48,520 bases of DNA, taken from IMG/VR virus record IMGVR_UViG_2711768004_000012. One strand, given 5' to 3'. Each line of letters begins with the position of its first letter. Positions within the stretch are counted from its first letter, which is position 1. Shown piece by piece: positions 798 through 36,762 of the stretch. This DNA is from a virus. Taxonomy: Duplodnaviria > Heunggongvirae > Uroviricota > Caudoviricetes. Below the pieces are notes generated by a model. It was not told where the DNA came from and searched no databases. It saw only the letters and a program-made list of their open reading frames with translations. A program made the translations under genes and the position numbers.

Positions 798-3685
798 TAT
801 GCAAGCCTCACAATATAGTTAAATGCGATGTTTTTGACGGTGTTTTCCGCGTTACCAGCAGCGTTAACGGTGATGGTGTGTCCATGTGAACCAATCGCAA
901 CGGAGTGCGTATGAGCACCAATACCGACAGTATGCGCGTGTGCACCTGCAGATGCTGCTGTGCCGGACAGTGAATGGCTATGATTACCATCTATACTGGT
1001 ATTCGCTAACCACCCCGTAGACATACCTACTGAGCCTTGTACACCCCAGGTATTTTGACCTGAGCTTGTATAACCATATTGATAAGTATCTTTAAAAACA
1101 CTGGGGTTAAATCGACGGCCATCTCTATGGCTGTGATTACCAGCTGCATTCGTGCTGCCACTTAAACTATGGGTATGCGCACCAGTGTTATTCGTGGATT
1201 TAGTGCCGTAATCAAACGACGATGTGGTTTTCGTCCCCAAATCCGTACTGGATGCGCTGGCGCTGTGGGTATGCGATTTAATGCCGTCCTGTTCCTGAGA
1301 CAATACGGCCCGACCACTGGCAGGTTTGCCCTTAATCGTCCAGCCACGCATATCAGGGATCACGCCTGACGGATAAGCCGCTGCAAGTTTCGGGTATGCA
1401 GATTTGTCAAAAGCCTGCCCCTGCATCAGGGCATAGCCAGACGGAACGGTATCTGATGGCCACGGGATTGGTGCGCCAGGCGGATAAAACTGCTCTGATG
1501 GCGTATAGAGTGAATAAACTGTACCGTCCGTTAACCCTTCCGGCTTATTAGCAGAATATGCTGGTGACGTATGAATCGTCACGCTGGCATTACTGGTATA
1601 ATCCCATTGAATATTTACACCAGTCGCATAATTTCCGATTGCAACGTAAATATCGTAAGTATCACCAGATGTATTAACCCAGGCAAAATTTGTAAACCCT
1701 GTCAATGTGCGCTGCCATAAAGCACCAGTAATCCCCTTCGGATTACCATTACCTGCACGTAAAACAAGTTCAGATATACCTGCCTGTTGAGGTGACCCCA
1801 CGTTAAATCCAGCGCCACCAATCAACGTAATTGAAACAACAGAACTCGCCTGTGGCATGGTTACCGTTGCTAATTTGAACCAACCAGCACCACCGCTGAA
1901 TGACATTGTTGTTGAGTTAAGCGTACCAATATCTTTCGGCGTCAGTGTTATATCCGCTGAAAGCGCCTTACCATTCACCTTACGGGCAGAAGGTACCCGA
2001 CCATTCGCATTGTCATTAGCTGCTTTCACTGCTTTCGGTGTCGCAGCAAGCGTTTCAGATGTGCTGTTGGTTGCACTACTGAGCTGGACAATTCCTTTTT
2101 GTGCTGTCGTAGCGTCCTGTGCGGTGTATTTCCCGTTAGCCAGGTCATACGCGGCCTTAACGGCTTTTGGCGTTGCCGCCTGTGACTCGGAAGTGCTGTT
2201 AGTCGCACTGCTGAGCTGAACTATCCCTTTCTGTGCTGTCGTTGCATCCTGTGCGGTGTATTTCCCGTTAGCCAGGTCATACGCGGCCTTAGCTGTCTCG
2301 GCGCGCGTTGCCGCGGATTCCGCCGTACTTTTGCTCTGTGCTGCCGCTGCCGCACTGCCAGCAGCCTCTGTCGCCTTCGTGGATGCCGTCGTGGCGCTGC
2401 CCCTCGCTGCTGACGCCTGTCTGGTCGCCTCATCTTTTGAAGCAGACGCAGATGATGCCGATGACGCCGCCGAACTGGCGGACGATGCGGCAGCCGTTTT
2501 TGAGGATTCTGCGCTGGTTTCCGACGCTTTCGCGTTCGTTTCGGATGTCTTCGCTGCGGAAGCAGACCTCGCTGCTGCGCTGGCCTGTTCAGTGGCTTCG
2601 CCAGCCTTCGTTGTGGCTGTTGAAGCGGATGATGCGGCGCTTTCTGCCGATTTTCCGGCGGCGGTGGCACTGACTGCTGCCTCCTCTGCCTTAATGGACG
2701 CCTCACGGGCCGATGATGCAGCTGCTGTCTCAGAGTCTGCCGCAGCTGAGGCGCTCTGTTCCGCTGCCGTTTCAGAAGACTTAGCATTCGTCTCGGACGT
2801 TTTTGCCGCCTTCACGGAATTTCCTGCCGCCGTTGCCGAGGAGGCTGCACTGCTGGCGCTTGTGGAGGCGTTCGTTTCTGATGATTTTGCCGCCTCTTTG
2901 GAGGCCGCCGCATCTCTGGCTGAAGTGGCGGCTTCTGACGCTTTCGTTGTCGCNNNNNNNNNNNNNNNNNNNNNNNNNNNNNNNNNNNNNNNNNNNNNNN
3001 NNNNNNNNNNNNNNNNNNNNNNNNNNNNNNNNNNNNNNNNNNNNNNNNNNNNNNNNNNNNNNNNNNNNNNNNNNNNNNNNNNNNNNNNNNNNNNNNNNNN
3101 NNNNNNNNNNNNNNNNNNNNNNNNNNNNNNNNNNNNNNNNNNNNNNNNNNNNNNNNNNNNNNNNNNNNNNNNNNNNNNNNNNNNNNNNNNNNNNNNNNNN
3201 NNNNNNNNNNNNNNNNNNNNNNNNNNNNNNNNNNNNNNNNNNNNNNNNNNNNNNNNNNNNNNNNNNNCAGATGTGCCGGCATCACTGGCTGACTTCTTCG
3301 CGGCTGCCGTGTTCTGTGCCACCGCGGACGCGTTACGCGCCACCTCTTCCACCATCAGTTCAAAACGGCGCAGAGCCTCCGGACGGGCATCATCCTCCGT
3401 CATGGCACCGAGAAAATCATTCAGCGTACCGGGTCGGGAATCTTCATACACAGTGATGGTCCCGGCATGTGACGGCGGGAATCCTTCCACCAACAGAATA
3501 ACGCTGTACTGACCGTACTCAACGTCCATGCTGTAACGCCCGGCTTCATCCGGATTTTCTGAGGCCAGCGTGTTCACCACCACCGTGGTGCTGTTACGTT
3601 TTGCTTTCAGCTGGATTGTGCAGTTCTGTACCGGTTTTCCTGTGCCGTCTTTCAGTACACCTGAAATCTTTACTGCCATATTCAC
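797..3685 (-). CDS. stf: Side tail fibre protein (Stf-like); interrupted by N run 2954-3267
   Basis: 962 aa ORF; N-terminus [29 protein letters not shown] resembles lambda Stf; long Ala/Ser/Thr-rich central region; C-terminal His/Gly-rich receptor-binding region; followed by tfa. Confidence 0.8.
2040..2300. repeat. Direct tandem repeat inside stf, period about 132 nt (2 copies), encoding a duplicated ~44 aa block
   Basis: Nearly identical DNA, e.g. gtgctgtt...cccgttagccaggtcatacgcggcctta at 2061-2160 and again 132 nt later; protein shows [35 protein letters not shown] twice. Confidence 0.8.
2954..3267. other. Run of N (masked/undetermined, 314 nt) inside stf
   Basis: Literal n characters in the sequence. 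Confidence 1.
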
Positions 3686-3908: not shown

Positions 3909-4491
3909 NNNNNNNNNNNNNNNNNNNNNNNNNNNNNNNNNNNNNNNNNNNNNNNNNNNNNNNNNNNNNNNNNNNNNNNNNNNNNNNNNNNNNNNNNNNN
4001 NNNNNNNNNNNNNNNNNNNNNNNNNNNNNNNNNNNNNNNNNNNNNNNNNNNNNNNNNNNNNNNNNNNNNNNNNNNNNNNNNNNNNNNNNNNNNNNNNNNN
4101 NNNNNNNNNNNNNNNNNNNNNNNNNNNNNNNNNNNNNNNNNNNNNNNNNNNNNNNNNNNNNNNNNNNNNNNNNNNNNNNNNNNNNNNNNNNNNNNNNNNN
4201 NNNNNNNNNNNNNNNNNNNNNNNNNNNNNNNNNNNNNNNNNNNNNNNNNNNNNNNNNNNNNNNNNNNNNNNNNNNNNNNNNNNNNNNNNNNNNNNNNNNN
4301 NNNNNNNNNNNNNNNNNNNNNNNNNNNNNNNNNNNNNNNNNNNNNNNNNNNNNNNNNNNNNNNNNNNNNNNNNNNNNNNNNNNNNNNNNNNNNNNNNNNN
4401 NNNNNNNNNNNNNNNNNNNNNNNNNNNNNNNNNNNNNNNNNNNNNNNNNNNNNNNNNNNNNNNNNNNNNNNNNNNNNNNNNNNNNNNNNNN
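3909..4491. other. Run of N (583 nt) covering the J 3' end and lom 5' end
   Basis: Literal n characters. Confidence 1.
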
Positions 4492-7400
4492 TTTTGGTCA
4501 CAATCACCGTACAGTCGGTGATATTGCCTGCCCCCTGATTGCCTTTCTGGAAAATCTTAAACTCCAGAGTGACGCTACCACCACCACTAGGCATATCAAT
4601 AACTGCACTGTAACTACCGGGAATGGCCCCTTTAGTTTCTCTGGATGCGATTAATACGCCGTTTTTGCGAACTTCAAAACCATAACCCGTGTATCGCGTG
4701 CCTCCTGGGTTATTTCCGCTCCCCGGATCGTCATACGCTATACCGTTAAAAATAATGGGCGGAATAATAATCTGGCGGTCAAAGTTATGATCATCGCTGA
4801 TGGTGACTGTAACCGTACCGTCTGGTGTTTCCGTGTTACCCCACGTACCGACTTTTTTCGGGAAGGCTTTTGATACAGCTTTAACGAAATCCCCTCTGAC
4901 CTGGGTCGCCTCCAGCATGCCCTTAATCGTACAGTTCTGGTTAATCGTGACATTGTTGAGCGTTCCTGAGTTCGCATTCACACTACCACTGATATCCGCA
5001 TTTTTAGCGGTCAGCTTTCCGTCTGATGTCAGGGAAAATACCGGAGGACTGCCACCGCTGGTAATGGCGGGGGCTGTCAGGCGCTTCAGGAACACGTCGT
5101 TCATGAATATCTGGTTGCCCTGCGCCACAAACATCGGCGTTTCATTCCCGTTTGCCGGGTCAATAAACGCGATACGATTGGCGGCAACCAGAAACTGGCT
5201 CAGCTTGCCTTCCTCCGTGTCCTCCATGCTGAGGCCAATACCCGCGACATAATGTTTGCCGTCTTTGGTCTGCTCAATTTTGACGCCCCACATCGCATTC
5301 CATTTATCGTTAGCGTCCTTCCACTCTTTCGAAAACTCATCCAGTCTGCTGGCGTTATCCTCCGTCAGATCAACTTTTTCCAGCAGCTCTTTACCGAGAT
5401 GGGATTCGGTTATCTTGCCTTTGAAAAAATCCAGGTAACCTTCCGCATCATCGCTCGCCCGACCGACGGCCTCCACGAATGCCGATTTGCCAACGGTGTT
5501 CACACTGCGGATATAAAAGTAATAATCATGGCCCGGTTTGATATTGATACTGGCGGCTATCCAGTACAGCCCCGCGCCAAGGTAGCGGGCTGTGGTTTCA
5601 ACCTGCCTGATATCGGTAATCCGCGTTTCCGAGAACCAGAACTCAAACTGTACCGTCGGATCATAAACCGCAAGATGCGGCGTGGCAGTTATCTGAAAAT
5701 AGCCCGGCGTCAGCTCAATCCGCGACGGTGCTACCGGTGCGGCAATCCTGAACGATACCGACGCCGGATCGCCCTGCTGTCCCCAGGCATTTACCGCCCG
5801 GACTGTCAGCGTGTACCGTCCCAGCGCCAGTTGCGTGAAGCGGTATGTGGTTTCCGTCGTCCGGGCCGTGCTGACCAGCCGCTCACTGCCGTCATCCGCT
5901 GCCACGGTCAGGCGAAGCATAAAGCTCACCCCCTTCACCACCTTCGGCGTGTCCCAGCGCGCCAGCACCTGATATTCCCCGCTGTCTGCGGTGACTTCGG
6001 CAGTCAGGTGCTGCACCGCTGGCGGCGTGACACCATTCACCGTGCCGCTCTGGTCGCCGTCAAAGTGCGCCCCGTTATCCACGATGGCTTCTTTTTCCGG
6101 TACATGCTGCACGGCAGTGATGGCATACGTGCCGTCATCGTTCTCACGGATACTCACACAGCGGAACAGGCGCTGGCGCAACGTCGGCAGCTTCAGCCCC
6201 CACACGCTGTATTCAGCAACGCCGTCAGGAACACGGCTCACTTTCACCTTCACGCCGTCGGTGACGGACTGAACCTCCACGCTGACCGGATTGCCACTTC
6301 CGTCAACCAGGCTTATCAGCATGGTACCGGAGGATGGCAGCGTGATTTCACGGTCGAGCGTCAGCGTCCGGGTCTGGCTGTTTACCGCCAGCACGCGCCC
6401 GCCGATGCTGATACCCGCATAGTCATCATCACAGATTTCAATGACATCGCCCGGCACATGGCGAAGCCCTTCTGCGCCCACGCTGAAGTCCACGGTCTGC
6501 GTTTCCAGCAGTTCTGTTTTAATCAGCCACAGCCCGGCGCGGTGTGCCTGCCCCCGGCTGGTACAGCCAAAAGCATCCATCTTCGTGACGTTACGACCGT
6601 AACGGGCAATGGCCTGCGTATCCTCCACAAGCTCTGTCGCCGTCTCCCAGCCGTTATCCGGGTCAATCCAGTTCACCTCAACGGCATTATGGCGGTCNNN
6701 NNNNNNNNNNNNNNNNNNNNNNNNNNNNNNNNNNNNNNNNNNNNNNNNNNNNNNNNNNNNNNNNNNNNNNNNNNNNNNNNNNNNNNNNNNNNNNNNNNNN
6801 NNNNNNNNNNNNNNNNNNNNNNNNNNNNNNNNNNNNNNNNNNNNNNNNNNNNNNNNNNNNNNNNNNNNNNNNNNNNNNNNNNNNNNNNNNNNNNNNNNNN
6901 NNNNNNNNNNNNNNNNNNNNNNNNNNNNNNNNNNNNNNNNNNNNNNNNNNNNNNNNNNNNNNNNNNNNNNNNNNNNNNNNNNNNNNNNNNNNNNNNNNNN
7001 NNNNNNNNNNNNNNNNNNNNNNNNNNNNNNNNNNNNNNNNNNNNNNNNNNNNNNNNNNNNNNNNNNNNNNNNNACACCAGGCCATGTTGTTGCTGTATGC
7101 TGGTTTTAACGTTCCGTCCCAGATACCGCTGTATTGTCGCGTCTGCGGGTTATAGTTCGACGGCACCTGCAGAATGCGCCCGCGAAGATGATAATTACGA
7201 CTCACCTGCTGGCTGCCGAACTGCTCCGAGTCCACCTGTACGCCGACCAGTGCAGTGTTCGGGTAGCACTGTTTCACATCGATGATTTCGGTGTATGACG
7301 ACCAGAGCGTTTTGTTCTGCAGCTGGTCTGTGGTGCTGTCCGGTGTCATCCTGCGCATCCGGATACTGAACGGGCGCGGAGGCAGGTTATCCACCACCAC

Positions 7401-8590: not shown

Positions 8591-8678
8591 NNNNNNNNNN
8601 NNNNNNNNNNNNNNNNNNNNNNNNNNNNNNNNNNNNNNNNNNNNNNNNNNNNNNNNNNNNNNNNNNNNNNNNNNNNNN
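8591..8678. other. Run of N (88 nt) at the K/I junction
   Basis: Literal n characters. Confidence 1.
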
Positions 8679-28262: not shown

Positions 28263-28512
28263 NNNNNNNNNNNNNNNNNNNNNNNNNNNNNNNNNNNNNN
28301 NNNNNNNNNNNNNNNNNNNNNNNNNNNNNNNNNNNNNNNNNNNNNNNNNNNNNNNNNNNNNNNNNNNNNNNNNNNNNNNNNNNNNNNNNNNNNNNNNNNN
28401 NNNNNNNNNNNNNNNNNNNNNNNNNNNNNNNNNNNNNNNNNNNNNNNNNNNNNNNNNNNNNNNNNNNNNNNNNNNNNNNNNNNNNNNNNNNNNNNNNNNN
28501 NNNNNNNNNNNN
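28263..28512. other. Run of N (250 nt) covering the R 3' end and Rz 5' end
   Basis: Literal n characters. Confidence 1.
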
Positions 28513-31383: not shown

Positions 31384-31926
31384 TCAAGCCATTTTCTCAG
31401 CAAATGATTCACGCATGGGAATATATAGGGCATACTCAGCAACAGCTAACCAATTAGCAATCCGTTTTTCGCATGTGCTAAAACACCACTCTGGGTGTGC
31501 ATCATTTAGCAATTCAGCCATTTTGCGCTTAGTCATCCCCCGCCCTTCATAGCGTTGCCGGAGAATGCAAATCAATCCTGGATGCTCTGCCAGCACCTCA
31601 CTTATGACTCGATCAATACATAACGCCTCTGCATCAGTACAATGCGCCAGCCAGCTCTTTTGCTTGCCGTTGATCATCTCTCGCAAAAACGCTTCCAGCT
31701 CAGCTTTCTCTATTCCCGCTTTTTTCATTCTGCGCAGGGCTTCATTAATGGCTGTTTTCGTCAGTTTTTTGGATGCCAACAACTGATTGAACATATTCCC
31801 TGACCTGCCACCGCCAATATACGACCAGCGCCCCCACATACGTAGTTTTCCCTGAATCCAGACACTTTCCAGCGTGGTGAGGCGAAGGTGTTCTCCGCTT
31901 TTTCCTGTATTCGTTGGGTAAATCAT
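31384..31926 (-). CDS. Late-gene antiterminator Q-like protein
   Basis: 180 aa ORF at the end of the nin region, immediately upstream of an intrinsic terminator and the lysis cassette; sequence is not lambda Q-like, so the call rests on position and size. Confidence 0.55.
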   Translation of the reverse strand: MIYPTNTGKSGEHLRLTTLESVWIQGKLRMWGRWSYIGGGRSGNMFNQLLASKKLTKTAINEALRRMKKAGIEKAELEAFLREMINGKQKSWLAHCTDAEALCIDRVISEVLAEHPGLICILRQRYEGRGMTKRKMAELLNDAHPEWCFSTCEKRIANWLAVAEYALYIPMRESFAEKMA

Positions 31927-32213
31927 AAATGACCTTTCTTTCTCCAGATTTCTTGTGTGCGAAAAACCCCTTCAGCATGCATCAGGCGCAATTCTTCTTT
32001 GGTGTAATCGCTGGTTTTTACCCGCCCGTCGATTAGATCGTGGCATGAGCTACAGGCTATCGCCGCCTGCATATCATGTGGTTTTGTCGCTGTTCCGCAC
32101 GTCCCCGCCAGCCTGTAATGCGCCAGCACAGAGGTTTCGGGATTGTGATTGCAGTAGCCAGGGATTCTGATCTGGCACATCTGGCCTTTAGCCGCTTTAC
32201 GTAAATTCACCAT
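31923..32213 (-). CDS. YbcO-like (DUF1364) nin-region protein, Cys/His metal-binding
   Basis: 96 aa with CQIRIPGYCNHNPETSVLAHYR...IACSSCHDLIDGR, resembling DLP12 YbcO-type proteins. Confidence 0.55.
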   Translation of the reverse strand: MVNLRKAAKGQMCQIRIPGYCNHNPETSVLAHYRLAGTCGTATKPHDMQAAIACSSCHDLIDGRVKTSDYTKEELRLMHAEGVFRTQEIWRKKGHL

Positions 32214-32812
32214 TACGCAAACTCCAGTAGTTGTGCGGCCACATTTTCAACTTCCTCCTGAGAGGAGAATTTACGGAACAGAATCCAGTTCCACAGCACA
32301 TTCAGTACAGATTTATAAACCTGCTGAAACTCGACTTCGTCCATATTCGCAAAAGCGATGGATTTTGCCCGACGCCCACGGCTACCGTCCGGATAAATAT
32401 GCTCGGTGTAAAATCCGGCCTGAATGGTTACCCACTCGCGGAAAGCCTCAAACGACTTTAGCAACGCCGTATCCCGGGTTCTACGAGTCGCAACGGTGTT
32501 AAGGTATTGCTCTGCGGCATCACTCAGGGCTGGCGTGTGTTCCCGACCAACTGATTCGCACAGGTAATCAACGAAACCAGACAGCAGTTCTCGTTCGCGA
32601 GGCGTGATCGCCCCACCGACCGGAGTCCAGTAATCGAATCCCAGTTGCAGGAGTTTGAAAAAACGCTTGTGGAATGCGTAGTTACGCACACGCTTAAAGT
32701 CTGCGTGTATCCACTCACCTATTTTGATTTGATGCAGAAAATCGCAACTCTCCGGCGTCGCCGGGAGAAGTAAACCAGAAGAGGTTTGTTTGACCAGTTG
32801 TATATGCGCCAT
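32213..32812 (-). CDS. Nin-region hypothetical protein (DUF1367-like)
   Basis: 199 aa ORF, 1-nt overlap with the downstream gene; phage backbone composition. Confidence 0.5.
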   Translation of the reverse strand: MAHIQLVKQTSSGLLLPATPESCDFLHQIKIGEWIHADFKRVRNYAFHKRFFKLLQLGFDYWTPVGGAITPRERELLSGFVDYLCESVGREHTPALSDAAEQYLNTVATRRTRDTALLKSFEAFREWVTIQAGFYTEHIYPDGSRGRRAKSIAFANMDEVEFQQVYKSVLNVLWNWILFRKFSSQEEVENVAAQLLEFA

Positions 32813-33092
32813 TTCTCAATCTCTCGATGGCGCAGCGCAGCAGATGCCAGTTGTTCAGGCTGACGAATAAAGTATAAATAAACTGGCTATGGTGTAAAGC
32901 CCCACATAGCATGAACAAACACTACATATCAAATAGCTGGTACAAGGATAGAAATACGACACTTATTATTAAAAACGATTAGATAAATTACATTTTAATG
33001 TTATGCAAAAGTTCTTTTTTATCATAACATTTCAATAAAAGCATTACAGATGCAATCATCCCGTCATCATCAATTATTTAAGGTGGTTAAAC

Positions 33093-33179
33093 ATGGAAAA
33101 TAACAAGTTCGCACATCTCGCTCCTTTTTTATCCGTAATCCTTTTCGCTTGTTGTTTTATATGGGCATTATTTTTATAA
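33093..33179 (+). CDS. Candidate small hydrophobic peptide (28 aa) MENNKFAHLAPFLSVILFACCFIWALFL
   Basis: ATG preceded by strong SD AAGGTGG at 33080-33086 with 6-nt spacing; single predicted TM helix; inside the AT-rich island. Confidence 0.35.
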   Translation: MENNKFAHLAPFLSVILFACCFIWALFL

Positions 33180-33587
33180 AGTAGCCACATGATAAGTTGC
33201 TGGAATCATATTTCCCACTCAAGTCATTAACATTTGATAAGATATATCTAAAAGGACGCCTTTACATTATTTATGCGTATATAATTTATTTATATACACA
33301 GTAAAGGTATCCTGGGAAAATATTTATCGTTAAAAAATACATCATAAATAATTAAGCTGAAATTTCAGAACACAACTAATACACACAATAAGGTTCAGTA
33401 ACAGTAATCTATGTGGACTACATCGAGATTTTTTGATTAAACTTTAATAACTTATTCCTAACACACAGAATGCATAAACTAAAAGTAAAACAAATAGTTA
33501 TACGAAAAACAACCATATTTATTCTATCTTCTCCTCTAATCAACATATCAATTATGTGTTTCATAACAGCTTGACATAACCCTCCAA

Positions 33588-33610
33588 AAGATGCATTTTT
33601 AATGCATGTT
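33588..33610 (+). promoter_or_regulatory. NsrR-type operator-like inverted repeat upstream of the yeaR-like gene
   Basis: aagATGCATttttaATGCATgtt: first half AAGATGCATTT is identical to the NsrR half-site consensus as I recall it; ATGCAT-based 11-1-11 palindrome; a perfect TTGACA lies at 33571-33576. Confidence 0.5.
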
Positions 33611-33625
33611 TTGGAGGAGGTGGTT

Positions 33626-33964
33626 ATGACACACAAGAGAATTCCTAAAGATTGGGTAATCAAACGCTCAACTCCGTTCTTCACAAAAGAGAACGTACCT
33701 TCAGCGTTATTAACACATCATAATACAGCAGCAGGTGTTTTTGGGCAGTTGTGCGTAATGGAAGGCACTGTAACATATTATGGTTTTACTGATGAGAATG
33801 CTACTGAACCGGAGATAAAAGTAGTCATTAATGCTGGCGCTTTTGCAACAAGCCCACCACAATACTGGCACCGTGTTGAACTAAGCGATGATGCTCAGTT
33901 TAATATTAACTTTTGGGTCGCTCCAGACTTTTCGGGCGAAAAAGTCTATAGCACCAAAAAATAG
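33626..33964 (+). CDS. YeaR-like DUF1971 protein (moron)
   Basis: 112 aa MTHKRIPKDWVIKRSTPFFTKENVPSALLTHHNTAAGVFGQLCVMEGTVTYYGF...FNINFWVAP parallels E. coli YeaR (…RSTPFWNK…MHGAVKYLGY…YFNIDFFVAP); strong SD GGAGGAGGTGG upstream. Confidence 0.7.
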   Translation: MTHKRIPKDWVIKRSTPFFTKENVPSALLTHHNTAAGVFGQLCVMEGTVTYYGFTDENATEPEIKVVINAGAFATSPPQYWHRVELSDDAQFNINFWVAPDFSGEKVYSTKK

Positions 33965-33993
33965 ATGATCATATTAAAAATGCTTTAACAGTC

Positions 33994-34031
33994 AGACCCG
34001 GCAGGGCTATCCCCGACGGGTCTCATTTTTG
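33994..34031 (+). terminator. Candidate terminator after the yeaR-like gene
   Basis: agacccg...cgggtct inverted repeat followed by cattttt; the loop is long (16 nt), so strength is uncertain. Confidence 0.4.
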
Positions 34032-34584
34032 TAAATATATTGGTTCTACATTGACAGGAGACTTCAACCATAAGAAGTAATCTGAATACTTGAGCAATAA
34101 ATTTACTTAAGATTAATGAGCGCACCTTGCCGGACAAAGATAAACCAAGGTAACACCTTTTTTCTAGCCAGTATGTAATCAATCAGAAAGCCGCTCCATA
34201 AGAACAACAGCAAGACAATAAATTGCCATTACAGCCGCAATAGCCAGCGCACATTTGAGAACCAGCACGACAACCCCCTGTATTAGACGCACACCAGTCC
34301 TGATAAATATGAGGCTGTCTCGTCAGTGATTCAATACAACTATTGGGTATAGTTTCTGTGATTTTATTCTGTAGAAATGGAACACAACAACCAGTCACCA
34401 CCAGCACTTCCTTAAATGCTCTAAGTCAGAAACAAGCCAACATTTTAGTCCGCTTTGAGCGATCTGCAGACATTGCTAGCAGCCTTCTGTGTGAATTCTC
34501 AGGGAGCAGGTCGGCATAGCATCACGTTGAGGCTCTTACCCTACTTGTTCACACCAACCCTAACTCCACAGACTGATTCATAAA

Positions 34585-35586
34585 TTAGTAATCTGCGTGT
34601 TTCGCACTTTTCAGAAATGCTTTCATATTTTCATTAGGTCGCTCAATTTCGAAGTTACTTCCATATAACTCTTGTAATTTTGGCCATAACTTACTTAATA
34701 ACCCTCTCCTGCGATAAAATGGATGTATCCAAACGGTAGATAGGTACGGAGAATTTGCATTTGAATTGTTTATTGTGACCAGCCCAACTAAACATTGTCG
34801 ATAACCACTATTATCCATTGATTGTATTTCTTCGACGAATGGATACGCGATTACATCAGTCCAACCATGATCGGTTGTATCCCATTGCATTCCGTCATGA
34901 CATTCCTTCGACTGATAGCGGCGTAAAGCTACACACGCGAGCTTTTGCCAATCTGGAGAATTAATTGTGATCTCTTCATCGTATGACGCGCCTATTGGAG
35001 CGGGTATTGGTCTGATTAATCCAGCATGGCATTCATCATAGAACTTCATGTTTCCCTCAGAAACGTTGTGTACGTTGGGTTGCTCCATGTGTGCGCCATT
35101 CAAAAATAGCTCTGATAGTAGTGTATCTACACTGTAATCTTTATTGATTATTGTCGGCTTAGAGTTTTTCTTATTAAGGCCGCGAGTAACGATTTTTTGA
35201 TCAATGTTAACAACATGGAATAATCCGTCGGGGAGGCTAGCGAACCACGATGGGGCATCGGACCAGAATAGCATGCCTTTTGTACTTCTTAAGAGTTTAA
35301 TTAAGTTAATACAAGCTTCTTCACTAGTCTTGCCGTTGATGCGAAGTATGTTAGGACTAAAGTAATATTCATCCATATCAGGGAATGCAGCTTCGCAAAA
35401 CTCCTGTACATAATTTAGCACCTGGATTCTACAGAGATCATCATAGCTGGTAATAACTAAGGGGGTATCTTCATTACTATTATGATTATCAATAATGCAA
35501 TCTATAGCGAGACTTACTGCTTTGCGTATCACTTCAGTTGAATCTAACGACTCTAAAAATTTTGTCTTTCGTGTGCGAATATCCAT
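34585..35586 (-). CDS. Hypothetical protein with GNAT-like acetyltransferase C-terminal domain
   Basis: 333 aa; C-terminus ...CLVGLVTINNSNANSPYLSTVWIHPFYRRRGLLSKLWPKL... fits GNAT motif A (beta strand then R-x-x-G-x-hydrophobic); AT-rich; 15 nt downstream of the preceding gene (operon). Confidence 0.5.
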   Translation of the reverse strand: MDIRTRKTKFLESLDSTEVIRKAVSLAIDCIIDNHNSNEDTPLVITSYDDLCRIQVLNYVQEFCEAAFPDMDEYYFSPNILRINGKTSEEACINLIKLLRSTKGMLFWSDAPSWFASLPDGLFHVVNIDQKIVTRGLNKKNSKPTIINKDYSVDTLLSELFLNGAHMEQPNVHNVSEGNMKFYDECHAGLIRPIPAPIGASYDEEITINSPDWQKLACVALRRYQSKECHDGMQWDTTDHGWTDVIAYPFVEEIQSMDNSGYRQCLVGLVTINNSNANSPYLSTVWIHPFYRRRGLLSKLWPKLQELYGSNFEIERPNENMKAFLKSAKHADY

Positions 35587-35601
35587 GTATGACCTGCGCT
35601 A

Positions 35602-36562
35602 TTAAAATTCATGAATGAACGGTTTGTCATCTGGTTGCAAAATGGTGGTTTTATTCGTTGCTACATTTAAACTGTTGTAGAGCATAATTGCCAGGTTCGA
35701 TGCATTTTCAATCAGCGTTTCAAGATCCTGGTCTGTAATCACTACGAGGTTCCCTTCTTTATCCTTTCCACCACGATGCACTAAGTGATTTCGATTGAGG
35801 GTTGCCAATTCAATAGCTTCTATCGGACAGTCTTTTTGTACTTTTATATCGAATGTAGCTTCATAGCGGTCGATTACCTTTTTAGTGCTATGCCAGCTTG
35901 CACTGATCAAGTGTTCCTTGATTGACCTGATTAGCTCTCCCCTAATTTTCTCGATGGGTTCACCCTTGAAAGGCAACGCAGCAATATCTTTGCTTACTTT
36001 AAATTCAGTCTTACCTTTTTCTATACAATTGGCTATGTAGACATCATCTTTCTCTATAGAATTAATGAATAGCTCAACATAAAGCGTTTCCAAAGCTGTA
36101 ATAACATTCGTGTAGAGCAAACTAAGCAAGTGGTTTTTTTGCTGTTGTTCAGTTTTATCTTTTGCAAGTTTTTTTATTTTATCGATATTATCAATGAATT
36201 TTAAATACGGATTACCGGAAGACGTTACAGCGTCGTAGATATCATCATCGTACCAATCATCTATATTATTTGAGTTTCCAGACCAGTCAAAACATTGTGT
36301 TTGTAATTCATCTACTAATTCCTCAATATACTCAGATTTAACATATTGACCGAAGATGGATTGTAGTTCTTCGCTCGCATCATACGGCCCGCCATATATG
36401 TAAGCATAGCCACCTTCTCTACTTTCATACGGACAAGCATTTGCCGGATCTTCAAAGTTTTCAAAGAACCAGTTTTTCATTACTTCGAGTTGATCTTTTT
36501 TGCTTATGTATTTTAAAGATTTTAGTGGAACTTTCTTTCCATTAACCTCGAAAACAATTTTC
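35602..36562 (-). CDS. Hypothetical protein with HEPN-like R-N-x3-H motif (probable GTG start; ORF track extends to 36693)
   Basis: About 320 aa; C-terminal region ...ELATLNRNHLVHRGG... contains R-N-H-L-V-H (Rx4H); SD AAGGGAG before GTG AAA ATT; AT-rich; first gene of a two-gene operon. Confidence 0.45.
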
Positions 36563-36762
36563 ACGATGTAACGCTCCCTTGTATCAATTGCGCAACTATT
36601 ATACCACAGCGAAATACAGGGCATAACCTGCCTCCTTAAACTAACATACCATGAGCCAGCAATGTCCGCTATTGGCACAAAGCGGACAACCACGCTAGCT
36701 CTCCCCTGTGCCAGAAAAATGTCAATTTACATATGAACTAATGCTCTTTGATCTAGTAACGT

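Follow-up and report, generated by a model that had tools for sequence, protein, structure and literature searches.

An STM1808-type DUF1971 gene behind an NsrR-type operator: a predicted nitric oxide-responsive cargo cassette on a Rac-type prophage of Escherichia coli

Two genes of the DUF1971 family represent the closest described systems for the locus treated here. STM1808 of Salmonella is reportedly regulated by NsrR and encodes a protein said to bind zinc in dependence on H32 and H82, and it is also said to support growth under nitrosative stress and in mice. The E. coli yeaR-yoaG operon is reportedly activated by NarL and repressed by NsrR. A third point of comparison is provided by the classical lambdoid morons, including bor and lom of lambda, the Fur-controlled stx1 and prophage sodC, which are dispensable for the phage and employ a host transcription factor as a switch. 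They likewise carry their own promoter and terminator and deviate from their surroundings in orientation and composition.

STM1808, annotated as a 'putative cytoplasmic protein', is cited as an NsrR-regulon and virulence gene in passages of two articles (PMC7527575; PMC7082413), and a passage of the former also cites it for nitrosative-stress resistance and virulence (PMC7527575). A tehB homologue was predicted to belong to the NsrR regulon in enterobacteria and Photobacterium by Rodionov et al. 2005 (PMC1274295).

The gene described here lies within a viral DNA stretch of 48,520 nucleotides (IMG/VR record IMGVR_UViG_2711768004_000012), which is referred to as the window. It contains runs of N at 2954-3267, 3909-4491, 6698-7073, 8591-8678 and 28263-28512, where analysis of ORFs and motifs is blind. 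Our main reading, to which we assign a probability of roughly 0.75, is that the gene forms a prophage moron plugged into the nitric oxide (NO) regulon of the host repressor NsrR and would provide the lysogen with an extra NO-inducible defence gene. Unlike the classical morons, its proposed switch is the NO sensor NsrR, and its cargo is a conserved regulon member for which the host species has no chromosomal copy. The features of the cassette are as follows.

33181-34163, plus strand: cargo cassette (moron), defined against related prophages with hokD at the same slot
33571-33576, plus strand: -35 hexamer TTGACA, read directly and invariant in 13 of 13 prophage promoter variants
33581-33617, no strand: extended 37-bp palindrome with 17-nt arms (33581-33597 and 33601-33617) and one mismatch
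33588-33610, no strand: NsrR-type operator, an 11-1-11 inverted repeat AAGATGCATTT-T-TAATGCATGTT, 27.3 bits on the weight matrix
33594-33599, plus strand: predicted -10 hexamer CATTTT, weak (3/6), with a 17-bp spacer and within the left operator half-site
33613-33620, plus strand: Shine-Dalgarno (SD) region GGAGGAGG, read directly, its 3' part invariant across variants
33626-33964, plus strand: coding sequence, annotated likewise in RefSeq, of a DUF1971 protein with 112 aa that belongs to the STM1808-type orthologues
33994-34031, plus strand: intrinsic terminator, a GC-rich hairpin (33994-34023) followed by CAUUUUU, -19.4 kcal/mol, z -2.5

The DUF1971 protein and its orthologue group

A preliminary description, made from the sequence without database searches, had placed a DUF1971 gene on the plus strand opposite to the surrounding phage genes. 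Both parts of this claim proved correct since all neighbours of ORF 33626-33964 lie on the minus strand and the product matches the full Pfam DUF1971 model (PF09313, profile positions 1-80 of 80) with an E value of 2.3e-26 and 92 bits against a cutoff of 23.1. The single NCBIfam match of the 112-aa protein, to the N-terminal part of TehB, is sub-threshold, and the corresponding PHROGs entry, phrog_34268, is annotated as function unknown. The ORF is under purifying selection, with dN/dS values of 0.03-0.2 among the prophage alleles.

The fold has in effect been solved in PDB entry 3DL3, the Vibrio fischeri 'tellurite resistance protein B', which aligns over residues 1-111 (E 3.5e-59) and is a structural-genomics entry without an attached function. 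The N-terminal domain of Haemophilus influenzae TehB (3M70) is also held in common with the prophage protein (E 5e-11), whereas TehB proper continues into a C-terminal SAM methyltransferase domain that the 112-aa protein lacks. His32 and His82 are both present and are conserved in 3DL3, YeaR and H. influenzae TehB; they would be candidates for holding a metal. 3DL3 itself falls into the orthologue group of the prophage protein described below. Most Vibrio orthologues lack a nearby NsrR site, in contrast to the prophage copy.

The earlier label 'YeaR-like' holds for the family, and PDB 3BB6, YeaR, is matched with E 1.6e-24, but it does not hold for the closer relationship. The protein is 41% identical to K-12 YeaR, as against 75-82% for the best 80 of the 321 species-level genomes in which relatives are encoded, among which are Kluyvera, Leclercia, Citrobacter, Klebsiella, Raoultella, Salmonella, Vibrio, Aliivibrio, Photobacterium and Shewanella. 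Consequently, the promoters of yeaR are the wrong comparison for this locus and those of the STM1808-type orthologues are the right one. The Salmonella orthologue (P0014/P0019) is a 113-aa protein, 79% identical, and is encoded directly after fadR-nhaB-dsbB, as judged from the Pfam matches of the neighbours; we take this gene to be STM1808. The H32/H82 numbering fits both the 113-aa Salmonella protein and the 112-aa prophage protein exactly, while the corresponding histidines of YeaR are H30 and H83. On these alignments, and taking the dsbB neighbour to be STM1808, the prophage gene is an STM1808-type orthologue rather than a copy of yeaR. Chromosomal synteny is not kept within the group, the prophage copy being located at ttcA and others beside dsbB or murQP-like genes, the latter in the Kluyvera chromosome.

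Comparison of the three genes brings out both likenesses and differences. Salmonella STM1808 shares with the prophage gene the two histidine positions, the single-gene unit and an NsrR 11-1-11 site a short distance before the ATG. It is, however, chromosomal and its site lies 39 bp from the ATG, whereas the gene on the Rac-type prophage has its site at 27 bp, together with a different upstream promoter region and a longer palindrome, and its regulation and phenotype are predicted ones. The yeaR-yoaG operon belongs to the same Pfam family, conserves both histidines and carries an NsrR site AAATGGTATTTAAAATGCAAATT in its promoter, but this site, of 23.9 bits, lies about 70 bp from the ATG, and the prophage gene, with 27.3 bits at 27 bp, has no yoaG partner.

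Prophage setting and exchangeable cargo

The prophage is of the Rac family and is located at ttcA in E. coli. The surrounding 1-1.8 kb are 100% identical to E. coli chromosomes, in which the gene is annotated as 'DUF1971 domain-containing protein'. The prophage gene order runs cI/cro-ydaT-ydaU-ydaV and, further on, two hypothetical genes, the DUF1971 gene on the opposite strand, DUF1367/NinB, YbcO, a Q-like gene, the lysis genes and trkG. The DUF1971 gene is antisense to the early-right operon and lies between the replication genes and Q. Its neighbours are listed below.

31384-31926, minus strand: DUF1133/Q-like gene
31923-32213, minus strand: YbcO gene
32213-32812, minus strand: DUF1367/NinB-like gene
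34585-35586, minus strand: hypothetical gene, phrog_16994, function unknown in PHROGs
35602-36693, minus strand: hypothetical gene, phrog_17908, function unknown in PHROGs

The limits of the cassette were defined by blastn against two related prophages carrying hokD (L121 and L122). Homology ends at 33180 and resumes at 34164, such that 983 bp replace a 459-bp hokD segment, and the GC content of the cassette is 26-40% as against about 49% in the flanking phage genes. The opposite strand, a -35 hexamer, operator, SD region and terminator of its own, an exchangeable slot and an atypical composition are together the properties of a moron, and they bear out the earlier proposal of a separate unit carried by a prophage. 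The unit is predicted to be transcribed independently of the flanking phage operon, and nitrosative-stress-regulated lysogenic conversion, as proposed in the preliminary description, is a well-founded prediction from these data.

The gene was found in 466 of 5426 complete E. coli genomes, always with at least 90% identity and only in prophages, and a search of the same 5426 genomes, sensitive to about 65-70% identity, yielded no diverged chromosomal copy. It follows that, where an STM1808-type gene occurs in E. coli, it is the prophage that supplies it. The gene also occurs in 37 IMG/VR contigs, three induced phages and one Shigella flexneri genome, and since the phage GenBank records contain only three related induced phages, there is little diversity on the phage side. 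Literature searches on NsrR/yeaR/prophage, STM1808 and DUF1971, of incomplete coverage, produced no article that describes the gene in a prophage or an NsrR site belonging to such a copy.

An STM1808-type gene with an NsrR-type operator is found on a Rac-type prophage in about 9% of complete E. coli genomes and in some Shigella. STM1808, which has no E. coli chromosomal counterpart, is cited in passages of published articles as needed for nitrosative-stress resistance and systemic infection. If the predicted regulation is true, the locus would illustrate cleanly how a phage can enlarge a stress regulon of its host, namely by bringing in a gene together with the cis-regulatory site that controls it. 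As a candidate fitness factor the gene might then matter in the inflamed gut or the urinary tract, and the natural allelic series of NsrR operators (17-28 bits) would lend itself to the study of repressor tuning. The cassette does not reveal a new kind of system.

NsrR control could also be real and the protein serve another end, either that of the phage, by sensing inflammation for the timing of its development or by an anti-defence activity, or tellurite or metal homeostasis. The family is annotated as 'TehB / tellurite resistance', Fur-box-like sites at the Kluyvera, Leclercia and Photobacterium orthologues hint at a link to metals, and the cassette, sited between the replication genes and Q, converges with early-right transcription. 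We consider such roles unlikely, if still credible, given that a passage of PMC7527575 cites the nearest characterised relative for resistance to nitrosative stress and for virulence, that the cassette is insulated by its own terminator, and that hokD is exchangeable with it at the slot, which points to optional cargo rather than to a phage developmental gene.

Some further observations concern the flanks. The region 32813-33625, between the NinB-like gene and the cassette, comprises about 800 bp of 26-34% GC without a credible ORF, and its left part, to about 33180, shows about 77-93% identity with other lambdoid prophages. On the other side, 34164-34462 (L121 2321-2619, L122 2501-2921) is about 90-97% identical to the hokD flank of other lambdoid prophages and is possibly a remnant of the upstream region of a hok/sok locus; an Rfam search of this segment gave no match. 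The two hypothetical genes between 34585 and 36693 produced sub-threshold GNAT and HEPN/RES-NTD1 matches, and no match in PADLOC. Strain LD39-1 is 99.7% identical across 32000-34496 and holds different genes at 34585-36693, which marks the latter as a variable cargo spot, and the two hypotheticals are possibly an undescribed defence pair.

Operator, promoter and terminator

The TTGACA hexamer reported earlier is present at 33571-33576. The ATGCAT-based inverted repeat reported downstream from it required revision only in its extent, the arms being longer than described, and the identity of its first half to an NsrR half-site stands: the left half, AAGATGCATTT, has the very sequence of the NsrR half-site that scores highest in ytfE and hmp (Mehta et al. 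2015, PMC5320621, Table 2). A symmetrised position weight matrix was constructed from 26 distinct 11-1-11 sites of E. coli CFT073 (Mehta et al. 2015, PMC5320621, Table 4), and the scan that had been suggested as a check placed positions 33588-33610 far above threshold, at 27.3 bits (analytic p ~6.6e-11; 3e-6 such sites expected per window). The second-best NsrR-like site in the whole window scores 12.3 bits, 15 bits lower than the operator. On the same matrix the weakest accepted CFT073 sites yield 12-14 bits, and the operator ranks below ytfE alone (31.9 bits) and above hcp, tehA, yeaR and hmp. With ytfE, hmp, yeaR and tehA removed from the matrix it still scores 26.6-26.8 bits, above all remaining training sites.

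The CFT073 ChIP-seq tables contain no site matching the operator (Mehta et al. 2015, PMC5320621), and this strain therefore apparently lacks the cassette. NarL heptamers (TACYYMT pairs) and Fnr-type sites were sought by eye against the consensus sequences and none were seen, and the nitrate arm of yeaR regulation should therefore not be carried over to the prophage gene. Two other operator types were considered by eye and rejected, an ARG box because there are five central bases rather than four, and an IscR type 1 or 2 motif because the sequence is unlike the consensus.

The operator is widely conserved. When the 250 bp upstream of each of the 80 best species-level orthologues were scanned, about 50 of the 80 carried an NsrR site of 17.6-30 bits, among them almost all the Enterobacterales and two Photobacterium, and no nearby site was found for most Vibrionaceae orthologues. 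The centre of the site is 27-39 bp upstream of the ATG in Enterobacterales and 39-55 bp upstream in Photobacterium, and the upstream site is the single best one in each 8-kb orthologue locus. The prophage gene has diverged from these orthologues to saturation at synonymous sites (pS 0.8-0.98; pN 0.10-0.14), and the retention of a near-consensus 23-mer over such a distance argues that the operator has been kept by selection. Moreover, the segment that blastn aligns with the Kluyvera chromosome runs from 33588, where the operator starts, to 33972, just past the stop codon, which indicates that gene and operator travelled as one unit. Judged from these comparisons, the pairing of the two is old and conserved.

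The orthologues have the promoter geometry in common as well. The -35 hexamer is 11 nt from the operator, the same distance as for TTTACA or TTGACN in the chromosomal orthologues, whose predicted promoters read TTTACA-17-TATTTT in Kluyvera and Leclercia and TTGACC-17-CATATT in Klebsiella. A predicted -10 hexamer of the form (C/T)AT(A/T)TT, at operator positions 7-12 and with a 17-bp spacer, is common to the orthologues. Transcription is predicted to start at about 33606, and the operator covers both the predicted -10 and this start, a geometry conserved in the orthologues; the AGGAGG of the SD region lies 5 nt before the ATG. A promoter and terminator scanner applied to 32800-34700 called neither a plus-strand promoter nor a terminator, the former being missed on account of its weak -10 and the latter because its loop exceeds 8 nt. 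The hairpin and T-run which the preliminary description had placed after the gene are indeed there and are conserved: no prophage variant has lost the hairpin, whose inner stem shows one compensatory change from GGG/CCC to GAG/CTC, and a divergent downstream version found among the variants has an analogous hairpin.

From these elements the following course of regulation may be proposed. In a lysogen without NO, the host [Fe-S] repressor NsrR would occupy 33588-33610 and block RNA polymerase at a sigma-70 promoter (TTGACA, 17 bp, CATTTT) whose -10 and start fall inside the near-consensus 11-1-11 operator. NO would nitrosylate the NsrR cluster, NsrR would leave the operator, and the released promoter would generate a short monocistronic mRNA with a leader of about 20 nt and a strong SD sequence. 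This transcript would end at the terminator, 33994-34031, before running antisense into the phage early genes. Its product, an orthologue of STM1808, would be a 112-aa DUF1971 beta-barrel with two conserved histidines and might confer a fitness benefit on the lysogen.

A second regulatory element was noticed at some chromosomal orthologues, where a Fur-box-like sequence (e.g. GATAATGAGATTCATTATC) with 14-17 of 19 matches is located about 60-85 bp before the ATG and immediately ahead of the -35 (background maximum, 14/19). It occurs in loci L004-L025, which represent Kluyvera, Leclercia, Pantoea sp. IMH, Pseudescherichia, Silvania, Buttiauxella and Enterobacter pasteurii, and in the Photobacterium loci L056 and L074, and suggests dual control by Fur and NsrR there. 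The best Fur-box match in the window, 11/19, is at background level, and the Kluyvera/Leclercia element has not been carried into the prophage. NsrR-like sites of 17-22 bits, some of them in tandem, were also seen in Neptunomonas and Parendozoicomonas (L067 1962-2019, L068 3315-3361, L075 2966 and 5069); they are not directly upstream of the DUF1971 gene and may belong to neighbouring NO-response genes.

The extended palindrome and its alleles

The palindrome around the operator extends past the NsrR 23-mer by 7 bp at either end, and its right arm ends in the GGAGG of the ribosome-binding region. As RNA it would fold with -25.1 kcal/mol (z -5.7), provided that the transcript starts upstream of 33581. 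The palindrome might, then, act mainly or additionally as RNA, with CCUCC of the left arm pairing with GGAGG and blocking translation of transcripts started upstream of 33581; this would amount to translational control or to silenced read-through, and NsrR would not be the sole switch. A CCTC-type anti-SD sequence is present in all promoter variants, and one variant shows the double change CCATC with GATG. However, the left arm occupies the interval between the conserved -35 and -10 and is absent from the mRNA expected from the predicted promoter, whose 20-nt leader (from about 33606) is unstructured, and no upstream plus-strand promoter was called by the scanner. Covariation among the prophage variants is weak and not significant: both partners are altered in three pairs, and a score as high as the observed one arises in 17 of 500 shuffles. 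The paired changes include C-G to A-T as well as CCATC with GATG. Furthermore, the Kluyvera and Klebsiella orthologues have no extended palindrome, and a pattern of this sort could arise from hairpin-templated mutation with no function behind it. Taken with these points, a role as RNA appears distinctly unlikely. Rfam searches of 32700-34700 at permissive E-values found no known RNA family, the only hit being a chance miRNA-hairpin match on the palindrome. The pattern seen in the prophage may stem from selection on a hairpin, formed by RNA or DNA, or from hairpin-templated mutation.

The two functions could also be combined in a two-level switch, for which we see quite a small chance. Here the palindrome would be an NsrR operator as DNA and an anti-SD hairpin as RNA, silencing transcripts that do not originate from the NsrR-controlled start, and the variability of the alleles, some with paired changes, would reflect selection tuning the NO threshold. 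Since the cassette is sited between the replication genes and Q and would be transcribed towards the early-right transcripts, NO could then feed into the lytic programme of the phage. That the inverted repeat is instead the operator of another regulator or a neutral palindrome, with the gene constitutive or phage-controlled and the likeness to NsrR sites fortuitous, would suit the simplicity of AT-rich ATGCAT palindromes and the variation of the operator region between prophage copies, but is very improbable in view of a chance match at p ~7e-11, the recurrence of the motif at this position in dozens of genera whose synonymous sites have diverged to saturation, the poor fit by eye of ARG-box spacing and IscR type 1/2 motifs, and the citation of the Salmonella orthologue as NsrR-regulated in passages of PMC7527575 and PMC7082413.

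Against a moron controlled by NsrR, which remains our preferred reading, stand the variation between alleles, the weak -10 and the lack of a nearby site at most Vibrionaceae orthologues. The operator and palindrome constitute a diversity hotspot in a cassette that is otherwise 97-100% conserved (window versus L001-L003 and L083-L119). Among 39 prophage copies the bins covering 33578-33617 are the most variable of the cassette, with a mean pairwise difference of 0.11-0.13, as compared with mostly <0.09 in the other bins. There are 13 operator variants, ranging from 17 to 28 bits, with alleles at 27.3, 26.2, 25.1, 19.2 and 17.0 bits among them; in all 13 the -35 and the SD-proximal bases are invariant. 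The commonest allele in the IMG/VR contigs, AACACGCATTTATAATGCATGTT, has a degraded left half, AACACGCATTT, and scores 19.2 bits; it carries a perfect TATAAT 21 bp from the -35, in a different register. Both the strength of control and the promoter register may therefore differ between prophage alleles.

Palindromes of this kind are not confined to the prophage. In Citrobacter and Yokenella (L026, L027, L029, L032, L043, L047, L049, L051 and L060) the NsrR site is embedded in a perfect palindrome of 43 bp, which may act as an extended operator, form a cruciform or RNA hairpin, or have arisen by hairpin-templated mutation. Its flanks show clearly compensatory differences between species, namely GGCATTTAT/ATAAATGCC, GGCATCTAT/ATAGATGCC and GGCACCTAT/ATAGGTGCC.
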